Source of the DNA: a virus | Lineage: Duplodnaviria; Caudoviricetes | Virus record (IMG/VR): IMGVR_UViG_3300033076_000312 | Coordinates: 1-31,215 of that record | Length of the DNA stretch: 31,215 nucleotides | Direction: 5' to 3' (one strand) | In this document: one piece after another, positions 766 through 30,365 of the stretch | Numbering within the stretch: position 1 is the first letter of the stretch | Layout: every line of letters begins with the position of its first letter | Position numbers and translations under genes: made by a program | Notes under the pieces: generated by a model | The model's input: only the letters and a program-made list of their open reading frames with translations | Told to the model about the DNA's origin: nothing | Database searches by the model: none

Positions 766-1284
766 TCATTCGTCGCCATACGGATTGGGCAAGTCATCCG
801 CATCAAGGTTATGGGAGCCGACTTGTTTAATCGGTTGGGCCTCTAGAATGATGGGCTGTTGGTGGCCTGCACTGTCGCCAATGTTTAGTTGGCGCAATGC
901 GTCCAGGTGAAGCTGGTTCACGTTGACGTTGACTTGGGCTTGAGTCGGTGAGGACTTATACTTGTCGGGGTTGGTCACGCCGGCCAGCCACTTGCGAGTT
1001 TCGATCTTGAGCCTGTCAGCGTTGGCGTTGAGGTTGTCGGTCTGGTCCGCGATGTCCAGGCATTCATCCGCCCATTGATCCGCCGCCAGTGCCCGCGCTT
1101 GGGCGAACCGCTCTTGCCGATCAGGGTCTTTCTTGATCCAGTGATAGAGCGATAGGTTGCTGATGCGCAGTTCCCGCGCCAGCGCCGCCATTGTCAGGCC
1201 GCTTGCGACCTTTTCGAGCAGCGTCTGTTCGCCGATCTTGTCTAAGTTACTGGCGATGGTTCGCCGCTTGATATGTCCTGCCAT
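766..1284 (-). CDS. terS: Terminase small subunit (Sf6 gp1-like)
   Basis: N-terminal HTH (GLTMAALARELRISNLSLYHWI), FAQARALAADQWADECLDIAD helix and RLKIETRKWLAG..NPDKY motif typical of Sf6-type TerS. SD AGGTG. Confidence 0.8.
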   Translation of the reverse strand: MAGHIKRRTIASNLDKIGEQTLLEKVASGLTMAALARELRISNLSLYHWIKKDPDRQERFAQARALAADQWADECLDIADQTDNLNANADRLKIETRKWLAGVTNPDKYKSSPTQAQVNVNVNQLHLDALRQLNIGDSAGHQQPIILEAQPIKQVGSHNLDADDLPNPYGDE

Positions 1285-1294
1285 GTTTCACCTG

Positions 1295-1384
1295 TTAGGT
1301 TGTCAGATATGAGCCGAGATATACCAGCCACAGGAAGAGGTATATCCCGGCCACAAGTTTAGCGTCTCTAGCGTGGTTGGTCAT
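1295..1384 (-). CDS. 29-aa single-pass membrane peptide (not in ORF track)
   Basis: MTNHARDAKLVAGIYLFLWLVYLGSYLTT*. ATG overlaps the upstream TGA (ATGA at 1381-1384). Confidence 0.6.
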   Translation of the reverse strand: MTNHARDAKLVAGIYLFLWLVYLGSYLTT

Positions 1385-1464
1385 AGGTAAGCCCAGGCCA
1401 ACCAGAGGGTGATCGCCACAACCCATGCTAAAATCGTTTCTAAGCGTCCCTCAGCGTGTTTCAT
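1381..1464 (-). CDS. 27-aa single-pass membrane peptide (not in ORF track)
   Basis: MKHAEGRLETILAWVVAITLWLAWAYL*. ATGA overlaps at both ends. Confidence 0.6.
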   Translation of the reverse strand: MKHAEGRLETILAWVVAITLWLAWAYL

Positions 1465-1643
1465 GGCGTTGCCCTAGTCACACCTAGGACAGAGACGAGA
1501 AGGCGCTCTACGGGCCTTGAAATCGATCTCTGACCTGATTCGTAATACTGGACAGCGCGGAGCGTTACGCCCAGCGCCGAAGCTAGGGCAGATTGCGTCC
1601 ACCCTAGCTCTTCGCGTGCTGCTTTAAACTCGGCCGGCGTCAC
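1461..1643 (-). CDS. XRE-family helix-turn-helix regulator (60 aa)
   Basis: (M)TPAEFKAAREELGWTQSALASALGVTLRAVQYYESGQRSI. GTG start overlaps the upstream TGA; SD GAGGGG. Confidence 0.85.
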   Translation of the reverse strand: MTPAEFKAAREELGWTQSALASALGVTLRAVQYYESGQRSISRPVERLLVSVLGVTRATP

Positions 1644-1846
1644 AGTAGGAATCCCCTCGCCTTGCAAGCTTGGCGCATATGGTCGCGGGACCATCCCCAA
1701 ACTTTAGCCACCGCCGAATAGGATTTGATCTGCTGCACAAGCTTTGCGTCTAGCTCCCGGCGCTGCTGCTCCAGCGCATCGAGGGCGCGGAAGATGCTGG
1801 CCGAGTCCATGCAAATTTTGTCTGCGTCTGCTTTGGTCTTATCCAT
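1640..1846 (-). CDS. Hypothetical protein (68 aa, helical)
   Basis: MDKTKADADK... start at 1846 with SD AAGGGGA; packs tightly with neighbours. Confidence 0.7.
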   Translation of the reverse strand: MDKTKADADKICMDSASIFRALDALEQQRRELDAKLVQQIKSYSAVAKVWGWSRDHMRQACKARGFLL

Positions 1847-2093
1847 TGCGCGTCCCCTTGTAGGATTCAATCTCTGCCCGCATTGATACAGCCGCGCCAA
1901 CAGCCAGCGCCATGCGGTCGCGATGCTCTTTCAATTCCTGGTCTTGCTGCTTGATGCTCAGGCGCAAGCCCTCCAATCGTTCACCAAGCGCCACGCAAAG
2001 CTCGACGTTTGGATTATACCGGGCTTCTTCGATCAGAGCCTGGGTGCCAAGTGCGCGATAATCGCAGCGATCTTTTCCGCCGATGATAGTCAT
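1839..2093 (-). CDS. Hypothetical coiled-coil protein (84 aa)
   Basis: MTIIGGKDRCDY... preceded by SD GAAAGGAAAG. Confidence 0.7.
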   Translation of the reverse strand: MTIIGGKDRCDYRALGTQALIEEARYNPNVELCVALGERLEGLRLSIKQQDQELKEHRDRMALAVGAAVSMRAEIESYKGTRNG

Positions 2094-2094
2094 G

Positions 2095-2250
2095 TTACTT
2101 TCCTTTCTGCTTTTCGAGTAATATCCGCACAATTCTAGGATGCTCTTCTGCGATGGTGTCGCGAAGCATATTGCTTCCCGCGATCATTGACAGGCGGAAC
2201 AATCGCTCCCGCTCAATGATTGCGCTTTCCGATAGGAATCGATTAGCCAT
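2095..2250 (-). CDS. Hypothetical protein (51 aa, not in ORF track)
   Basis: MANRFLSESAIIERERLFRLSMIAGSNMLRDTIAEEHPRIVRILLEKQKGK*. Fills the gap with 1 nt spacing on each side. Confidence 0.65.
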   Translation of the reverse strand: MANRFLSESAIIERERLFRLSMIAGSNMLRDTIAEEHPRIVRILLEKQKGK

Positions 2251-2251
2251 G

Positions 2252-2419
2252 TCAGTCTTCGCCAATCAATTCGGCATATTCTTCCGCCAATTGGTCGTCT
2301 GTATAGTTTGACGCATAACGGGCTGCGATTGTTTCGCGGGCGATTTCTTCAAGGTGCTGGGTGTTAAGATCGGCCATCCAGCATTCAACAAGATCATTAA
2401 TCATTTCTTCGCGTGTCAT
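2252..2419 (-). CDS. Small acidic protein (55 aa, not in ORF track)
   Basis: MTREEMINDLVECWMADLNTQHLEEIARETIAARYASNYTDDQLAEEYAELIGED*. 15 D/E versus 3 R and no K. SD GGAAAGGGAAG. Confidence 0.7.
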   Translation of the reverse strand: MTREEMINDLVECWMADLNTQHLEEIARETIAARYASNYTDDQLAEEYAELIGED

Positions 2420-2496
2420 TATCTTCCCTTTCCAATTAGGCCATCAGCCAATGCTGGCCCGCCTGATTGCGGAAGCGGGCCAGTGGGGGCGGGTGG

Positions 2497-2712
2497 TCAA
2501 TACGCGCCGTATAGACCTGCACGTGCGTCGAAGTAGCTATCGACCAGCATCTTGCCGCGTGGCTTGCCGTCACGTCCAAAAACCTGCCAGTATAAAACGC
2601 CTAGGTCGTTGTGATCGACGCAGCGATGCTCGACACCATCGATACGGATAACAGTGCCAAGCGCGGCTTGCGCTTCCGCAATCGAGCGGCACTTTTGGTT
2701 TAGATAAGCCAT
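2497..2712 (-). CDS. Hypothetical protein (71 aa)
   Basis: MAYLNQKCRS... with SD AAGAAAGGAAAG. Confidence 0.7.
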   Translation of the reverse strand: MAYLNQKCRSIAEAQAALGTVIRIDGVEHRCVDHNDLGVLYWQVFGRDGKPRGKMLVDSYFDARAGLYGAY

Positions 2713-2726
2713 GTTTCTTTCCTTTC

Positions 2727-2849
2727 TTACAAACTAGCAGCGATGCAGGCTTCATCGCCGGCACAAGCTTCACGGGTATCGGACTCGATAAGATACCAGG
2801 CGATCAGGATTGCGATGATTGCAGCGATAATGCGGTGTGGTTTGGTCAT
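2727..2849 (-). CDS. 40-aa membrane-anchored peptide with a C-x5-C tail (not in ORF track)
   Basis: MTKPHRIIAAIIAILIAWYLIESDTREACAGDEACIAASL*. SD AAGGAAGG. Confidence 0.65.
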   Translation of the reverse strand: MTKPHRIIAAIIAILIAWYLIESDTREACAGDEACIAASL

Positions 2850-2853
2850 GGTG

Positions 2854-3039
2854 TTACCCTTCCTTATTTGCATAGTTGGCGACGAATGCGTTGCAGCGGC
2901 TATATTCGCGGGGGGAGAGGAAGATTGCGGAGTGATCGATTGCTACGTCAAGCCGGGCAAGGCGATCATCGAACGGAATATTGTGGCGTTCAAGGTTAGC
3001 GGCGTAACGTTCGAACGCTGCAAGGTTAGCTAGTCGCAT
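2854..3039 (-). CDS. Hypothetical protein, first gene of the leftward operon (61 aa)
   Basis: MRLANLAAFERY... with SD GGAG upstream of the ATG at 3039. Confidence 0.65.
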   Translation of the reverse strand: MRLANLAAFERYAANLERHNIPFDDRLARLDVAIDHSAIFLSPREYSRCNAFVANYANKEG

Positions 3040-3070
3040 GGTATTGCACTCCATTTGCTTCGATGCCCAA

Positions 3071-3110
3071 ACGATATGCGAACGCTGTTCGTATGGTCAA
3101 GAACTTTTTT
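3071..3110 (-). promoter_or_regulatory. Sigma70-like leftward (early) promoter with a palindromic operator in the spacer
   Basis: Minus strand AAAAAAGTTC-TTGACC-N18-TATCGT. The spacer carries ATACGAAC-agc-GTTCGCAT (3076-3094). Confidence 0.6.
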
Positions 3111-3522: not shown

Positions 3523-4194
3523 ATGGCAGTTTACGGTTACACCCGCGTCTCGACAGAGGACCAGGTCGAGAACACCAGCCTCGAAGATCAAGCCCGCCAG
3601 ATAAAAGGCATCGCGCTTACGCACGATCTGGAGCTAACCCACATCTACGAAGAGAAGGGCGTATCCGGCGCTGTCCCACTCCTGCGCCGAGAAGAGGGCT
3701 GCAAGCTCGCATTCCTTCGCCAAGGCGATACGGTCATAGTATCGAAACTAGACCGTATGTTTCGCGATGCAAGGGACGCATTGAATGTCATTGGCGATTG
3801 GGAAGAGGCCGGGATTAACCTCATCATCAATGGCTACGGAAACGTGATGGACCAGAGCAATCCCCACGGCCGGTTCATGCTGGAGATCATGGCGGTCTTT
3901 TCGGGCGAAGAGCGTCGTCGCATTCGTGAGCGCGTCCTCGCCGGACGGAAGGCCAAGAAGGAAGCCGGCGGTCACGTCGGTGGCAACCCGCCGTTTGGCT
4001 ACGACAAGGTTGGTTCGGGCCGCAACGCCCGACTGCGCGAGAACCCCGAACAGCAAGACGCAATCACGACGATGAAGGTTGCTCGGCTCAAGGGCTATAG
4101 TTTCCGCGACATTGAATCTATCATTAAGAAGCGGCACGGCCTAGAAGTAAGCCACGTATCGATCCGTCGTATCCTTAAGGAGCGCAACCTGTGA
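3523..4194 (+). CDS. Serine recombinase, resolvase/invertase (PinR-like) family, 223 aa
   Basis: YGYTRVSTEDQ with the catalytic Ser, EKGVSG, VSKLDRMFR, E-helix, GGNPPFGY and a C-terminal HTH-like segment. SD GGAG before ATG 3523. Confidence 0.92.
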   Translation: MAVYGYTRVSTEDQVENTSLEDQARQIKGIALTHDLELTHIYEEKGVSGAVPLLRREEGCKLAFLRQGDTVIVSKLDRMFRDARDALNVIGDWEEAGINLIINGYGNVMDQSNPHGRFMLEIMAVFSGEERRRIRERVLAGRKAKKEAGGHVGGNPPFGYDKVGSGRNARLRENPEQQDAITTMKVARLKGYSFRDIESIIKKRHGLEVSHVSIRRILKERNL

Positions 4195-5678
4195 CCACCG
4201 CCAAGACGAAGAACCCTAGCCGCGCAGCCAAGGCCGCGAAGGAAGCGGCCGACCTGATGGCGCAGAACACGAAGCAAGAGCCAAACTTCTTCCTGTCGTT
4301 CCTGAAAAAGTATCGTGACGATCCGGTCGGGTTCGTGCGGGACATCCTGCGGACCACGCCGGACCCGTGGCAGATCAAGTTCCTAGAATCGATTCGAGAT
4401 GGCCATCGCCGTATCTCGGTACGTTCCGGCCACGGCGTCGGGAAGTCCACCGCCGCATCCTGGGCGATGCTTCATTACTTTCTCACCCGCTATCCGGTGA
4501 AGGTGGTCGTCACTGCGCCGACATCGGCACAGTTGTTCGATGCGATGTTCGCGGAACTGAAGCGATGGGTGAATGAACTGCCGGATATTCTCAAAACCTT
4601 GGTCGAGGTGAAAAGTGATCGTATCGAACTTAAAGCGGCACCTAGCGAAGCGTTCATCTCTGCCCGAACCTCCCGCGCCGAGACGCCTGAAGCCCTCCAG
4701 GGTATCCACGCCGACAACGTTCTACTGGTGGCAGACGAGGCATCAGGTATCCCTGAGTCTGTTTTCGAAGCGGCTTCTGGCTCCATGTCTGGCCATAGCG
4801 CAACCACTCTCTTGCTTGGGAACCCGACCCGAAATACCGGCCTATTTTATGACACCCACAACCGCCTGAAGGGCGAGTGGAAGACGTTCCATGTAAGCTG
4901 CGTTGACAGTCCGCGGGTGAGCGAAGCCTTCGTCAACGAAATGAAGCTGCGCTACGGCGAAGACAGCCCGGCCTATCACGTCCGCGTTCTGGGTAACTTC
5001 CCGCCGCGTGAAGAAGATACGGTCATTCCGGTCGAACTGATCGACAGCGCGATGAACCGCGAGATCAAGATCGACGAGAACGCCACGGCCGTCTGGGGCC
5101 TCGACGTTGCGCGTATGGGCAGCGACGCCAGCGCACTTGCCAAGCGCCGGGGTCCGGTCATCGAAGAGGTACAGACCTGGAAAGGTCTCGACCTGATGCA
5201 GCTAACCGGCGCTGTGGTGGCCGAGTATGAGGCGCTCCCGCCGAGTAAGCAGCCAGTCGAAATTCTCGTTGACTCTATCGGTCTTGGCGCTGGCGTTCTC
5301 GACCGTCTGCGCGAACTGGGCCTGCCGGCGCGAGGGATTAACGTTGCCGAAAGCCCGGCAATGAAGGGGACCTACGCCAACTTGCGCGCCGAACTGTGGT
5401 TCAAGTGTAAAGCCTGGCTGGCCAACCGCGACGTGAAAATCCCGAAAGATGAGCAGTTGTTCGCCGAACTGGCGGGTCCGCGCTACACATTCACTTCTTC
5501 GGGCAAAATGCAAGTTGAAAGCAAAGAGGCGATGAAGAAGCGTGGACTCGGAAGCCCGGACAAAGCAGACGCCGTGTGCCTTTCCTTGGCCACCGATGTA
5601 GCAACCGCCATGTACGGCTACTCTATGACGGGCGCTTTTAAGGGATCGCTCAAGCGGAATATCCGCGGCGTTGTATAG
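4191..5678 (+). CDS. terL: Terminase large subunit
   Basis: PDPWQ adenine-binding motif, Walker A RSGHGVGKST, Walker B LLVADEASG, LGNP, nuclease WGLDVARMGSD and SPDKADA. Start is GTG 4191 or ATG 4257. Confidence 0.95.
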   Translation: MTTAKTKNPSRAAKAAKEAADLMAQNTKQEPNFFLSFLKKYRDDPVGFVRDILRTTPDPWQIKFLESIRDGHRRISVRSGHGVGKSTAASWAMLHYFLTRYPVKVVVTAPTSAQLFDAMFAELKRWVNELPDILKTLVEVKSDRIELKAAPSEAFISARTSRAETPEALQGIHADNVLLVADEASGIPESVFEAASGSMSGHSATTLLLGNPTRNTGLFYDTHNRLKGEWKTFHVSCVDSPRVSEAFVNEMKLRYGEDSPAYHVRVLGNFPPREEDTVIPVELIDSAMNREIKIDENATAVWGLDVARMGSDASALAKRRGPVIEEVQTWKGLDLMQLTGAVVAEYEALPPSKQPVEILVDSIGLGAGVLDRLRELGLPARGINVAESPAMKGTYANLRAELWFKCKAWLANRDVKIPKDEQLFAELAGPRYTFTSSGKMQVESKEAMKKRGLGSPDKADAVCLSLATDVATAMYGYSMTGAFKGSLKRNIRGVV

Positions 5679-5680
5679 TG

Positions 5681-5709
5681 TTGCACGTCGATAAATTTTA
5701 ATATAGTTT
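5681..5709 (+). promoter_or_regulatory. Sigma70-like promoter immediately after terL
   Basis: TTGCAC-N17-TAGTTT with an AT-rich spacer. Confidence 0.5.
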
Positions 5710-5715
5710 ACCCAG

Positions 5716-5839
5716 ATTGCTCCTGCGGTGTTTCCTTTCCGCTGCGGTTGAGCGGTGTATCGTGTGGTCCGCACTCCCCCTCGATGCACAACCTAACGGG
5801 GGTCGGTCTTCTCTCCAGGGCCGGCCCCCGTTTCCTTTT
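5716..5839 (+). ncRNA. Candidate ~124-nt small RNA of three stem-loops with pyrimidine-rich (anti-SD-like) loops
   Basis: SL1 5717-5755, loop UUUCCUUUC. SL2 5755-5789, loop contains GCACUCCCCCU. SL3 5795-5832, loop CUCUCC, followed by UCCUUUU. The non-Watson-Crick stem pairs are G-U only on the + strand. Confidence 0.55.
5795..5839 (+). terminator. Intrinsic terminator (third hairpin of the candidate sRNA)
   Basis: AACGGGGGTCGGTCTT-ctctcc-AGGGCCGGCCCCCGTT then TCCTTTT. Confidence 0.7.
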
Positions 5840-5887
5840 AAATAAAATCCGTGTATAAGTCGCTTCCAAGTGGGCTGAGGGGCTTGC

Positions 5888-6283
5888 ATGGAAGATATGA
5901 CGCCGAAGCGTCTCACTAGGTTTAAAGGAAACCTGTGGACGCGATACCGTATACGGTTGCCCGACTTTTTACGAATGCTTGACGAGCAGGACCACCGCTG
6001 CGCGATTTGTAGTGTGGATTTTGAGCTAGGCAGTAAAGAAAGGACCGGGCCGAATAAACCTGTCGTCGATCACTGTCATAGTCAGGGACACGTTCGCGGC
6101 ATCTTGTGCCATGCGTGTAATAAGCTTATCGGTCTGGCTGGCGATAGTCCTGACATTCTACATCGCGCAATTGTTTACCTTGCGCAACGATCCGTGCTAT
6201 ACGATCTCAATCAACCGGAGACTGGTGATGAAGAAACCGACGAAGATGCAGAAGAAGATCGGCAAGGTCATGGGCGAATTTAA
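5888..6283 (+). CDS. Endonuclease VII-family (His-Me finger) protein, probably a free-standing homing endonuclease
   Basis: RYRI...MLDEQDHRCAIC...VDHCHSQGHVRGILCHACNKLIG...LHRAIVYL. Confidence 0.9.
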   Translation: MEDMTPKRLTRFKGNLWTRYRIRLPDFLRMLDEQDHRCAICSVDFELGSKERTGPNKPVVDHCHSQGHVRGILCHACNKLIGLAGDSPDILHRAIVYLAQRSVLYDLNQPETGDEETDEDAEEDRQGHGRI

Positions 6284-19347: not shown

Positions 19348-19592
19348 CTTTCGCCGATCTAGAGAAGGCGTGTCTTGAACGTATCCGGGTTTGGTGGCGT
19401 CCGGTCTCGTGTATTGGCATTGCAGGCGGGGTTGTCATACACGGCATAGTCTTGCCGATATGGCGCAAAGAAAGCCTCGATTTAATGGGATGGGCCGCTG
19501 TAATTACTGCTTGCTCTACTGTGTTTGCTGTGCGAACATGGGAGAAACTAAAGCAGGATGATAGCGATGGAAACGTGGGTACAGGTGATTGA
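19344..19592 (+). CDS. Putative holin (resembles the GTA 3TM-holin family)
   Basis: WRP followed by two hydrophobic segments and an RTWEKLK motif; ATGA-coupled to the endolysin. Confidence 0.7.
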   Translation: MTFADLEKACLERIRVWWRPVSCIGIAGGVVIHGIVLPIWRKESLDLMGWAAVITACSTVFAVRTWEKLKQDDSDGNVGTGD

Positions 19593-20067
19593 TTTCCCAG
19601 AATACGAGGTATCCGACCTAGGTCGTGTACGTAGGGTTGCATCGGCCCGAGGTGCAGTCTCCGGGTGTGTGCTTCGCCCATACCAAAGTAATGGGTACTT
19701 AAAGGTAACCCTCACCGCAAACGGTAGGAGGCGGAAAGCAGCCGTACACCGTTTGGTTTTAGAGAGTTTCTCGGGCAAGCCCGTTCCCGGTCTGGAATGC
19801 TGTCACGGCAATGGCGTGAGAAGTGATAACCGATTAGAAAATCTGAGATGGGCGAGCCGATCAGAGAATATGCAAGACGCCAAGAAACACGGAACAGCGG
19901 CTATTGGCGAAAGAAATGGACATGCAGTTTTACGTGCGGAAGATGTCGTAGAGATACGAAAACTAAGGGCATGTGGGGAGAAAGTAAAAGTTCTATCTGA
20001 GAAGTTTAACGTTCGCCATCAGACTATATCCGATATATGTACCCGCCGTAATTGGAAGCACATCTAA
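19567..20067 (+). CDS. NUMOD4-HNH homing endonuclease
   Basis: ETWVQV..FPEYEVSDLGRVR (NUMOD4), VHRLVLESF...CCHGNGVRSDNRLENLRW..SEN (HNH) and a C-terminal HTH. Start is 19558 or 19567. Confidence 0.9.
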   Translation: METWVQVIDFPEYEVSDLGRVRRVASARGAVSGCVLRPYQSNGYLKVTLTANGRRRKAAVHRLVLESFSGKPVPGLECCHGNGVRSDNRLENLRWASRSENMQDAKKHGTAAIGERNGHAVLRAEDVVEIRKLRACGEKVKVLSEKFNVRHQTISDICTRRNWKHI

Positions 20068-27967: not shown

Positions 27968-28519
27968 ATGAAAATCATGGGCGTAGACCCCGGCGCTTCT
28001 GGCGCTTTAGTTATTCTCGACACGGACGACCGTTCGATTGTCGTGATTGATATGCCCACTACTAAAGTTAAGCGAGGGCCGCGGACCGTCAACCAAGTTG
28101 ATGCCGTGGCCCTTTCTCATGCGCTGCAACCATATTCGGGTGAATGCACCGCGCTCGTCGAGAAAGTCCACTCTATGCCCGGCCAGGGTGTAGCCTCGAC
28201 CTTCAGCTTTGGCCGTGCGGCTGGTGTGTTAGAGGGCGTTCTTGCTGCGCTCGACATTCCTTTCTCGTTGATCCCGCCGCAAACATGGACTAAGGCTATG
28301 CGTCTATTCGGCGGAAAGGACGGAAGCCGGGCAAGAGCGCAAGAACTATTCCCCGACCAAGCGCACCTCTTCGCTAGGAAGAAGGACGATGGCCGGGCGG
28401 ATGCTGCGCTGATCGCCTGCTACGCCGCAGAAAGGTTGGAGAGTGGAACACCTATTCGAGTATCAGAAGACGGGGGCGAAGTTCCTCGCAGAAAACCCCG
28501 CCGCGTTTCTCGCGGATGA
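27968..28519 (+). CDS. ruvC: RuvC-like Holliday junction resolvase
   Basis: IMGVDPGASGA, LVEKVHSMPGQGVASTFSFG, PQTWTK, DGRADAALIA. Confidence 0.88.
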   Translation: MKIMGVDPGASGALVILDTDDRSIVVIDMPTTKVKRGPRTVNQVDAVALSHALQPYSGECTALVEKVHSMPGQGVASTFSFGRAAGVLEGVLAALDIPFSLIPPQTWTKAMRLFGGKDGSRARAQELFPDQAHLFARKKDDGRADAALIACYAAERLESGTPIRVSEDGGEVPRRKPRRVSRG

Positions 28520-29789: not shown

Positions 29790-30350
29790 TTAGATCAGAT
29801 CGTCAAGGTCCGAAATGTCCGCGGACGGACGTGCTTCGGCCGAGAACTCGTCGGCTGCGCTCAGACGGCCGTCCATACGCGGGCCGTCATCCGTCTTCTG
29901 GATATTACCCAGGCTGAAGGCGATGCCGTTGTTGCCGTTCACGCTGTAAGCGTAAGCGCGCAGCGAGGCACGAACCTTGGCACCGGGGTAGATTTCCTTC
30001 GGATCAGTGATCGGAGCGGGCTTGCCGTCCGCGCCAGCAAACTTCGAAACAACCTGTGGCGCCTGCTTCGACTTGACGTTCATGAACGTCGAGCCTTCAG
30101 GATAGCCCTTCTCGACACCGTCTTCGCGAAAGGGCATACGAATCTTGCCGGACTTGACGAGGTCTTTAAACTTGTCGCCCCACTTTTCCTTTCCGACCGC
30201 AAGAGCGGCTGCTTTCAGATCAGTCAGGTCAACCCCGTCTGCAAACACCAGCGAGCAGCTATAGACCGGCTCGGTCGCACCCGGAGGGGTCTGCGGTTCG
30301 AAGATGTGGGGGTAGCTGATGATCGCTTCGGGCGTGATTACCTTAGTCAT
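29790..30350 (-). CDS. ssb: Single-stranded DNA-binding protein (DUF2815/Enc34-like)
   Basis: ISYPHIFEP, YSCSLVF, PFREDG, IYPGAKVRASL..AY..NGNNGIAFSLGNIQKTDDGPR and an acidic tail (DISDLDDLI). Confidence 0.88.
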   Translation of the reverse strand: MTKVITPEAIISYPHIFEPQTPPGATEPVYSCSLVFADGVDLTDLKAAALAVGKEKWGDKFKDLVKSGKIRMPFREDGVEKGYPEGSTFMNVKSKQAPQVVSKFAGADGKPAPITDPKEIYPGAKVRASLRAYAYSVNGNNGIAFSLGNIQKTDDGPRMDGRLSAADEFSAEARPSADISDLDDLI

Positions 30351-30365
30351 GCGTAGTTTCCTTGT

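Follow-up and report, generated by a model that had tools for sequence, protein, structure and literature searches.

A conserved hairpin array beside a phage terminase gene: a candidate small RNA whose loops co-vary with the ribosome binding sites of non-structural genes

Blocking of the 30S subunit by pairing over the Shine-Dalgarno (SD) sequence of an mRNA is established behavior of small RNAs (sRNAs). Characterized phage regulatory RNAs act on host genes or on a single phage operon. The c4 RNA is a structured phage RNA that acts in trans on phage mRNA through exposed loops; it controls one antirepressor operon and is processed from a precursor by RNase P. The c4 antisense RNA of phages P1 and P7 constitutes Rfam family RF01695 (PMC2864571). 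Few phage-encoded regulatory RNAs have been described, according to excerpts of a preprint (bioRxiv 10.1101/2024.10.31.621285) in which PreS (lambda) and VpdS are base-pairing sRNAs that affect the lytic cycle, PreS by activating host dnaN via Hfq. The sRNA family known as cuckoo, alpha-r14, or RSs0680 (CcsR) (Rfam RF02344) consists of neighboring hairpins whose stems vary with compensation and whose anti-SD-like loops, CCUCCUCCC, are conserved, as set out in excerpts of PMC4615179. In cluster K mycobacteriophages, an extended SD-like motif (SAS) lies a few bases before non-structural gene starts, and one reverse-orientation copy lies away from any start; in the excerpted account, the authors left open whether RNA or protein is the binder (PMC3203893).

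The locus described here resembles each of these systems in part. The window (the whole stretch of DNA analyzed, 31,215 nucleotides) covers 31 kb of an incomplete phage genome. Portal, scaffold, and head genes lie on the + strand, and small leftward genes, terS in the same cluster, occupy 766-3039; the leftward genes are called early on the strength of their strand and position. The nearest cultured phage is Sinorhizobium phage phiM5 (terL 56% and head protein 55% identity), and those runs containing the window sequence that have a stated origin are mostly aquatic or wastewater metagenomes. For host assignment, GTDB matches were three MAG contigs from unrelated phyla, and atlas matches were virus-only clusters. 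A resolvase-sized serine recombinase gene (223 aa; 3523-4194) overlaps the terL start, a position kept across the close clade. Two free-standing endonucleases are present, one endonuclease VII-like (5888-6283) and one HNH (19558-20067). Between convergent genes at 463-747 lies an array of GTGCACGGTTT-type repeats, in two inverted groups flanking an AT-rich center; by its sequence, it looks like a replication origin or packaging-site region. The gap that follows terL holds a conserved, + strand-specific hairpin array with loops complementary to ribosome binding sites (RBSs) of the phage's own non-structural genes. The features of this locus are as follows.

4191..5678, + strand: terL (terminase large subunit; PHROG 2, E 3.7e-44), upstream neighbor of the RNA element
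5681..5709, + strand: predicted promoter of the RNA, TTGCAC-N17-TAGTTT, from sequence; below the threshold of the consensus scanner in the window
5716..5840, + strand: candidate small RNA, ~125 nt, predicted ends; from fold, covariation, and a single model match in the window
5718-5754, + strand: SL1; open loop 5731-5739, UUUCCUUUC, the main predicted seed (unpaired probability 0.975)
5755-5789, + strand: SL2; loop 5768-5777 (UCCGCACUCC); the hairpin with the least conservation
5795-5832, tail to 5839, + strand: SL3; terminator-like, loop CUCUCC (5811-5816), U-rich tail UCCUUUU; top row of the terminator scan
5854..5859, + strand: −10-like TATAAG before the downstream (late) genes, a putative promoter from sequence
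5888..6283, + strand: endonuclease VII-like gene, downstream neighbor of the RNA element

The fold of the element was strand specific. On the + strand, region 5718-5832 had a minimum free energy of −58.2 kcal/mol (z −6.01), and 0 of 200 shuffles were equally stable, whereas the − strand of the same region gave −39.1 (z −0.66) and was equaled by 46 of 200 shuffles. A preliminary description of this DNA, made from its sequence, had proposed selection for a + strand fold of three hairpins followed by UCCUUUU; these were located at the positions it gave, and the many G-U pairs it reported are present, at 8 of 40 rather than about 9. Loop 3 is open (unpaired probability 0.996), and the CCCCCU half (3' part) of loop 2 as first described is mostly paired (unpaired probability 0.001 for 5771-5780). 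The promoter-like sequence was likewise found at 5681-5709. It is sigma-70-like, and its type B copies (a loop type of relatives, see below) are near consensus. Because the promoter looks host sigma-70 type, late timing of the RNA, one sense of the first proposal that it comes from the late region, is unsupported. In the four RNA-labelled runs, related-strain contigs gave low, even cover with no separate piece at the element, which speaks neither for nor against expression, since such contigs cannot show ends, strand, or level. A small peptide encoded by the element was considered and rejected: no + strand ORF of at least 50 aa covers the element, and homologue lengths (121 to 127 nt) differ by amounts that are not multiples of three. 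Searches against Rfam matched no family: no row reached the gathering score in the window or in the loci scanned (16 close, 14 distant). Relaxing the cutoff to E 10 yielded only five chance-level rows, RF02344 not among them, and four loci scanned at E 0.05 gave none.

Conservation was assessed downstream of terL in IMG/VR relatives, of which the best 80 of 322 were kept (88 to 99% identity), giving 60 distinct downstream sequences including the window. The scorable set comprised 79 sequences (the window and 78 relatives), two of the 81 being too short. A pyrimidine-rich hairpin loop follows terL in all 79; the U-rich tail is present in 75 and missing from 4, and a TTG-type −35 with TA 16 to 17 nt further was found in 57. 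In the L008 and L013 type, loop 1 is lost and the pyrimidine tract is located in hairpin 2 instead. SL2 is not in the RNAalifold consensus, yet every homologue folds a hairpin at its position. As the preliminary description had led one to look for, compensatory stem changes surround the kept loops: in type A stems (10 window-like sequences), both partners differ in 6 of 26 pairs, a count reached by 0 of 500 shuffles, including 4 of 12 pairs of SL1 in the window-like set, and in the type B SL1 stem (20 sequences), both partners differ in 8 of 11 pairs (again reached by 0 of 500 shuffles), all counts being inflated by relatedness of the sequences, as the tool warned.

A model built from the 10 window-like sequences recognized, at E 2e-6 or better, 26 of the 58 sources (ten of these matches follow from its construction) and found one full + strand copy in the window. 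It covers types A, A002, A009, C1, and C2. Type B and clade D are not covered and for that reason were not counted as family members; their elements are either same-position analogues or far-diverged homologues of the window-type RNA. In clade D (terL ~65% identical), 52 of 74 loci have a pyrimidine-loop hairpin somewhere between terL and the portal gene or the end of the locus. Seven of 32 metagenome pattern matches were confirmed by the model, all seven adjoining terL; the remaining 25 had no model match and were set aside as chance. Annotated phages gave no DNA match to the element, and there was no model match in phiM5, which has no gap after terL, or in four other annotated relatives.

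Two further structures were seen among the relatives. The terminator-side module of type B (L044:4470-4550 and other loci) folds into a three-way junction in which the GGUAAUAGCG joiner hardly varies and the third arm is dispensable; it had no Rfam match and, as a sequence-level reading, may be a protein-binding or tertiary motif. Clade D carries another conserved structure, a second element in the first 150 nt after terL, at the end of the leftward module (L168, L214, L216, L219, L182-L190). A c4-like reading of this second element was unsupported, with nothing from Rfam in the four loci scanned.

Next, pairing between the loops and the gene starts of the window was examined. The loop-1 9-mer has three other copies in the window, two at RBSs (2099 and 2718) and one inside the ssb coding sequence (30185), and zero copies in the other orientation. 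The two RBS copies, exact 9-nt complements of loop 1, had been noted in the preliminary description, which omitted the copy at 30185. The five top-ranked predicted targets and the promoter of the presumed early cluster are listed below.

2718..2726, − strand: RBS before leftward gene 2712-2497, predicted target ranked first among 38 starts (loop 1, 9 bp, net −8.5 kcal/mol)
2099..2107, − strand: RBS before leftward gene 2093-1839, predicted target ranked second (loop 1, 9 bp, net −7.8)
3046..3052, − strand: RBS before the first leftward gene (start 3039), predicted target ranked third (loop 2, 7 bp, net −5.9)
28429..28443, + strand: RBS before the DNA helicase gene, predicted target ranked fourth (loop 3, net −5.1)
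2424..2433, − strand: RBS before leftward gene 2419-2252, predicted target ranked fifth (loop 1, pairing includes one G-U, net −4.7)
3071..3100, − strand: leftward sigma-70-like promoter before the presumed early cluster; 9/12 match, scan sites being no more numerous than in shuffles

When the 38 starts were ranked with accessibility, the top five were all non-late, and the 12 non-late starts beat the 23 late starts (p 0.0016); early and replication start regions thus ranked above late ones, as the silencing proposal implied. The terS start had no match to the loops. Of the individual targets first named, the first early gene has its loop-2 match (GCACTCC at 3046). For the HTH gene, CCCCTCG is present at 1653, but the match is weak and requires paired loop-2 bases. 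For ssb, GTTTCCTT is present at 30356, but in 13 of 14 orthologues the site stays AAGGAA-like while loops change, and because of this, ssb is not regarded as a specific target. The 9-nt pairing, exact in the window, did not extend to relatives: those with loop UCUCCUUUC, a U-to-C change in loop 1, keep GAAAGGAAA sites, and therefore the conserved pairing core is 7 to 8 nt, not 9. Within the spacer of the leftward promoter is a palindrome (3079-3091), a possible operator. A hairpin and leader module with an extended SD at its end (2420-2496) has variant copies before several early genes in relatives and, judging by its sequence, is possibly a cassette-exchange or processing site.

What is new here, beyond the single-window matches of the preliminary description, is that loops and RBSs co-vary between lineages. 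In 25 of 26 related records, all nearly whole, genes were called with our own scorer, starts without an SD score were dropped, and genes were sorted by blastp. For each loop type, the sequence upstream of every start was paired with own and with foreign loops, and the two were compared after removal of row and column effects, with label permutations. Across five loop types, none of the 120 assignments surpassed the own one for leftward genes or for replication genes, and for resolvase, terL, and terS the own assignment came second. When clade D was included and A009, a type represented by one genome, was excluded, the rank for leftward genes was 2 of 720, and re-runs gave 6 of 720 (energy version) and 12 of 720 (energy-free version). 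Late genes, with six types, ranked 581 of 720, and coding-sequence window controls ranked 532 to 701 of 720. An apparent avoidance of the own RNA by late genes (709 of 720) was rejected, since the same shift in the coding-window controls marks it as a bias of the test.

The type-specific motifs, chosen after viewing the data, illustrate this agreement. Loop UUCCCUUUCC of G002 accompanies GAAAGGG sites at 5 of 22 non-late starts, including helicase and resolvase. Loop UCUCCUCUC of type C1 accompanies GAGGAGA at 7 of 48 starts, including the polymerase site, with 0 in the other four close types. Type B pairs loop UCCCUCU with AGAGGGA at 24 of 121 starts, mostly of polymerase, primase, and helicase, and the majority of type B genomes have this motif at these three orthologous sites. 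In clade D, loop CUCCCA accompanies UGGGAG at 13 of 50 leftward and 0 of 71 late starts, with 5 of 178 leftward starts in other types. The six post hoc motifs occur in 0 of 233 late start regions and, by type, in non-late regions. A perfect complement of at least 7 nt to own-type loops was present in 84 of 266 non-late versus 5 of 233 late start regions.

Several properties of these data bear on their weight. The six loop types follow the terL tree, and therefore represent few independent events, and many rows are near-duplicates. The mean difference between own and foreign pairing is ~1 kcal/mol or less. Types B and C2 are near zero for small leftward genes (diagonal cells of −0.21 and +0.09 by energy and +0.10 and +0.20 by longest match). 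In type B, foreign loops reach 7-nt matches in 32 and 34 of 121 start regions versus 35 for the own loop, and type A helicase sites pair better with foreign loops. The start regions derive from our own gene caller, which rewards SD-like motifs.

The main alternative purpose for the same pairing is immunity. An RNA transcribed as soon as infection begins, or during a carrier state, would serve superinfection exclusion by silencing early genes of incoming relatives with the same RBS type, and such a role would drive loop and RBS to diverge jointly into specificity groups. The near-consensus promoters of type B suggest that a late activator is unneeded, loop types have diversified fast while terL has stayed 88 to 99% identical, and the 46 ORFs lack a named repressor family, except for one small HTH. 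On the other hand, cross-type pairing is only ~1 kcal/mol weaker, which is poor for strict groups, and neither the resolvase-sized recombinase nor the three GTDB matches, which are MAG contigs, give a sign of temperate life. We therefore consider immunity unlikely as the primary role.

It is also rather unlikely that the element is a generic anti-SD RNA directed mainly at host mRNAs, with early phage genes matching through their strong SD sites. The window loop 1 does lie one or two bases from the 16S tail, CCUCCUUUC (excerpts of PMC6107228 and PMC6943124), and therefore type A matches could be generic and it is the other types that carry the argument; in the window, the starts of the portal, major head, and ejection-protein genes also pair over 6 to 10 nt. 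A generic RNA does not predict lineage-specific agreement of loop and RBS in types whose loops are unlike the 16S tail. The type-specific motifs depart from that tail, which is near-invariant in the excerpted PMC6107228, and thus the shared ribosome does not explain them. The caveat of generic matching raised in the preliminary description is answered by this lineage-wise co-variation.

A function in cis only was judged improbable. The element would then be a terminator or 3' stabilizer of the resolvase-terL transcript, or a leader or insulator for the late promoter and endonuclease gene that follow it. SL3 is a strong terminator-like hairpin, the element stands directly before a late-promoter-like motif in the close-clade and clade D loci viewed (a motif similar to TATAAG follows it in 46 of 79 sequences by a loose pattern), and the endonuclease RBS matches loop 2 over 6 nt. 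However, a terminator requires neither SL1 nor conserved pyrimidine loops, and the endonuclease pairing is weak (net −2.6). The endonuclease VII-like gene varies in sequence among relatives and is replaced by another gene in L011, which retains the RNA. In clade D, a stricter descriptor placed the element in 33 of 69 loci, where it often follows an inserted leftward module, at distances from terL of up to 2.9 kb, and directly precedes the late genes; therefore, its constant neighbor is the late block rather than terL. Least probable is that loops and RBSs match through common descent, or because a repeated leader motif was copied at the DNA level, without any pairing function, for although early leaders are repeated modules (family D8) and loop types correspond to clades, the motif is held single-stranded between co-varying stems and shifts between hairpins, and non-repeated orthologous RBSs (helicase, polymerase, and primase) also track the loop of their lineage.

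Taken together, the element is probably a trans-acting RNA that represses translation of early and replication genes, a reading drawn from comparison of sequences. The silencing role first proposed is favored by the co-variation and the non-late bias; its late timing of production is not. In the mechanism we propose, a discrete ~125-nt RNA would be transcribed from the host-type promoter at 5681-5709, and its open loops would seed-pair over 7 to 9 nt with the extended SD of early and replication mRNAs. Such pairing would block 30S loading and lower initiation, in keeping with excerpts of PMC4615179, in which sRNA pairing over the SD blocks the 30S subunit. A stable RNA that accumulates through infection could act as a growing brake and help the phage move from early to late synthesis; virion genes, whose SD sites are short, would escape repression. 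More tentatively, and with less confidence than in repression itself, these phages might carry a private SD "dialect" in early and replication genes that is read by a matching small RNA, so that one RNA shuts a regulon, loop and sites drift into lineage codes, and the code may double as RNA-based immunity between relatives.

If true, this would be a protein-free early-to-late switch, or an immunity device, that works through co-evolved RBS variants of a non-structural regulon, in a phage group for which IMG/VR contains hundreds of terL relatives. The natural pairs of loop and RBS are ready-made compensatory alleles. By comparative analysis, the RNA element is real and conserved, and the evidence points to the phage's own non-structural genes as its targets. 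The literature consulted, with subscription papers incompletely covered, contained no described RNA of this type for this phage lineage. The tables searched from Fremin et al. 2023 (PMC10690425) held no match to the element, which is possibly listed in that study as an unnamed candidate.

Compared with known systems, the element is phage encoded and predicted to base pair, as are PreS and VpdS; it is a predicted repressor, unlike the dnaN activator PreS, and is set apart from both by description. With c4 it shares a structured phage RNA and predicted trans action through exposed loops, but the RF01695 model does not match it, and many RBSs rather than one operon are its predicted targets. The likeness to cuckoo lies in the adjacent hairpins (two to four, three in the window element) with variable stems. 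Whereas cuckoo has CCUCCUCCC in each loop, the phage loops (UUUCCUUUC, UCCGCACUCC, and CUCUCC) vary by hairpin and lineage and track the RBSs of their own phage, and the RF02344 model does not match. Cuckoo sits in conserved Rhizobiales and Rhodobacterales replicon neighborhoods, and the model-confirmed metagenome matches of the phage element are all beside terL. Thus, the phage RNA is predicted to work like cuckoo and other C-rich-loop sRNAs, and its loops, model, and location place it outside that family. As with the cluster K SAS, an SD-like motif is repeated before non-structural starts only (0 of 233 late regions, for motifs chosen post hoc); unlike there, the motifs are others, in another phage group, and the 13-bp SAS consensus is absent from the start regions listed. 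A further difference from SAS is that the reverse copy forms the loop of a co-varying hairpin that has its own predicted promoter, and that motif and loop change jointly. The element would thereby offer a concrete answer to the question left open for the mycobacteriophage SAS motifs.
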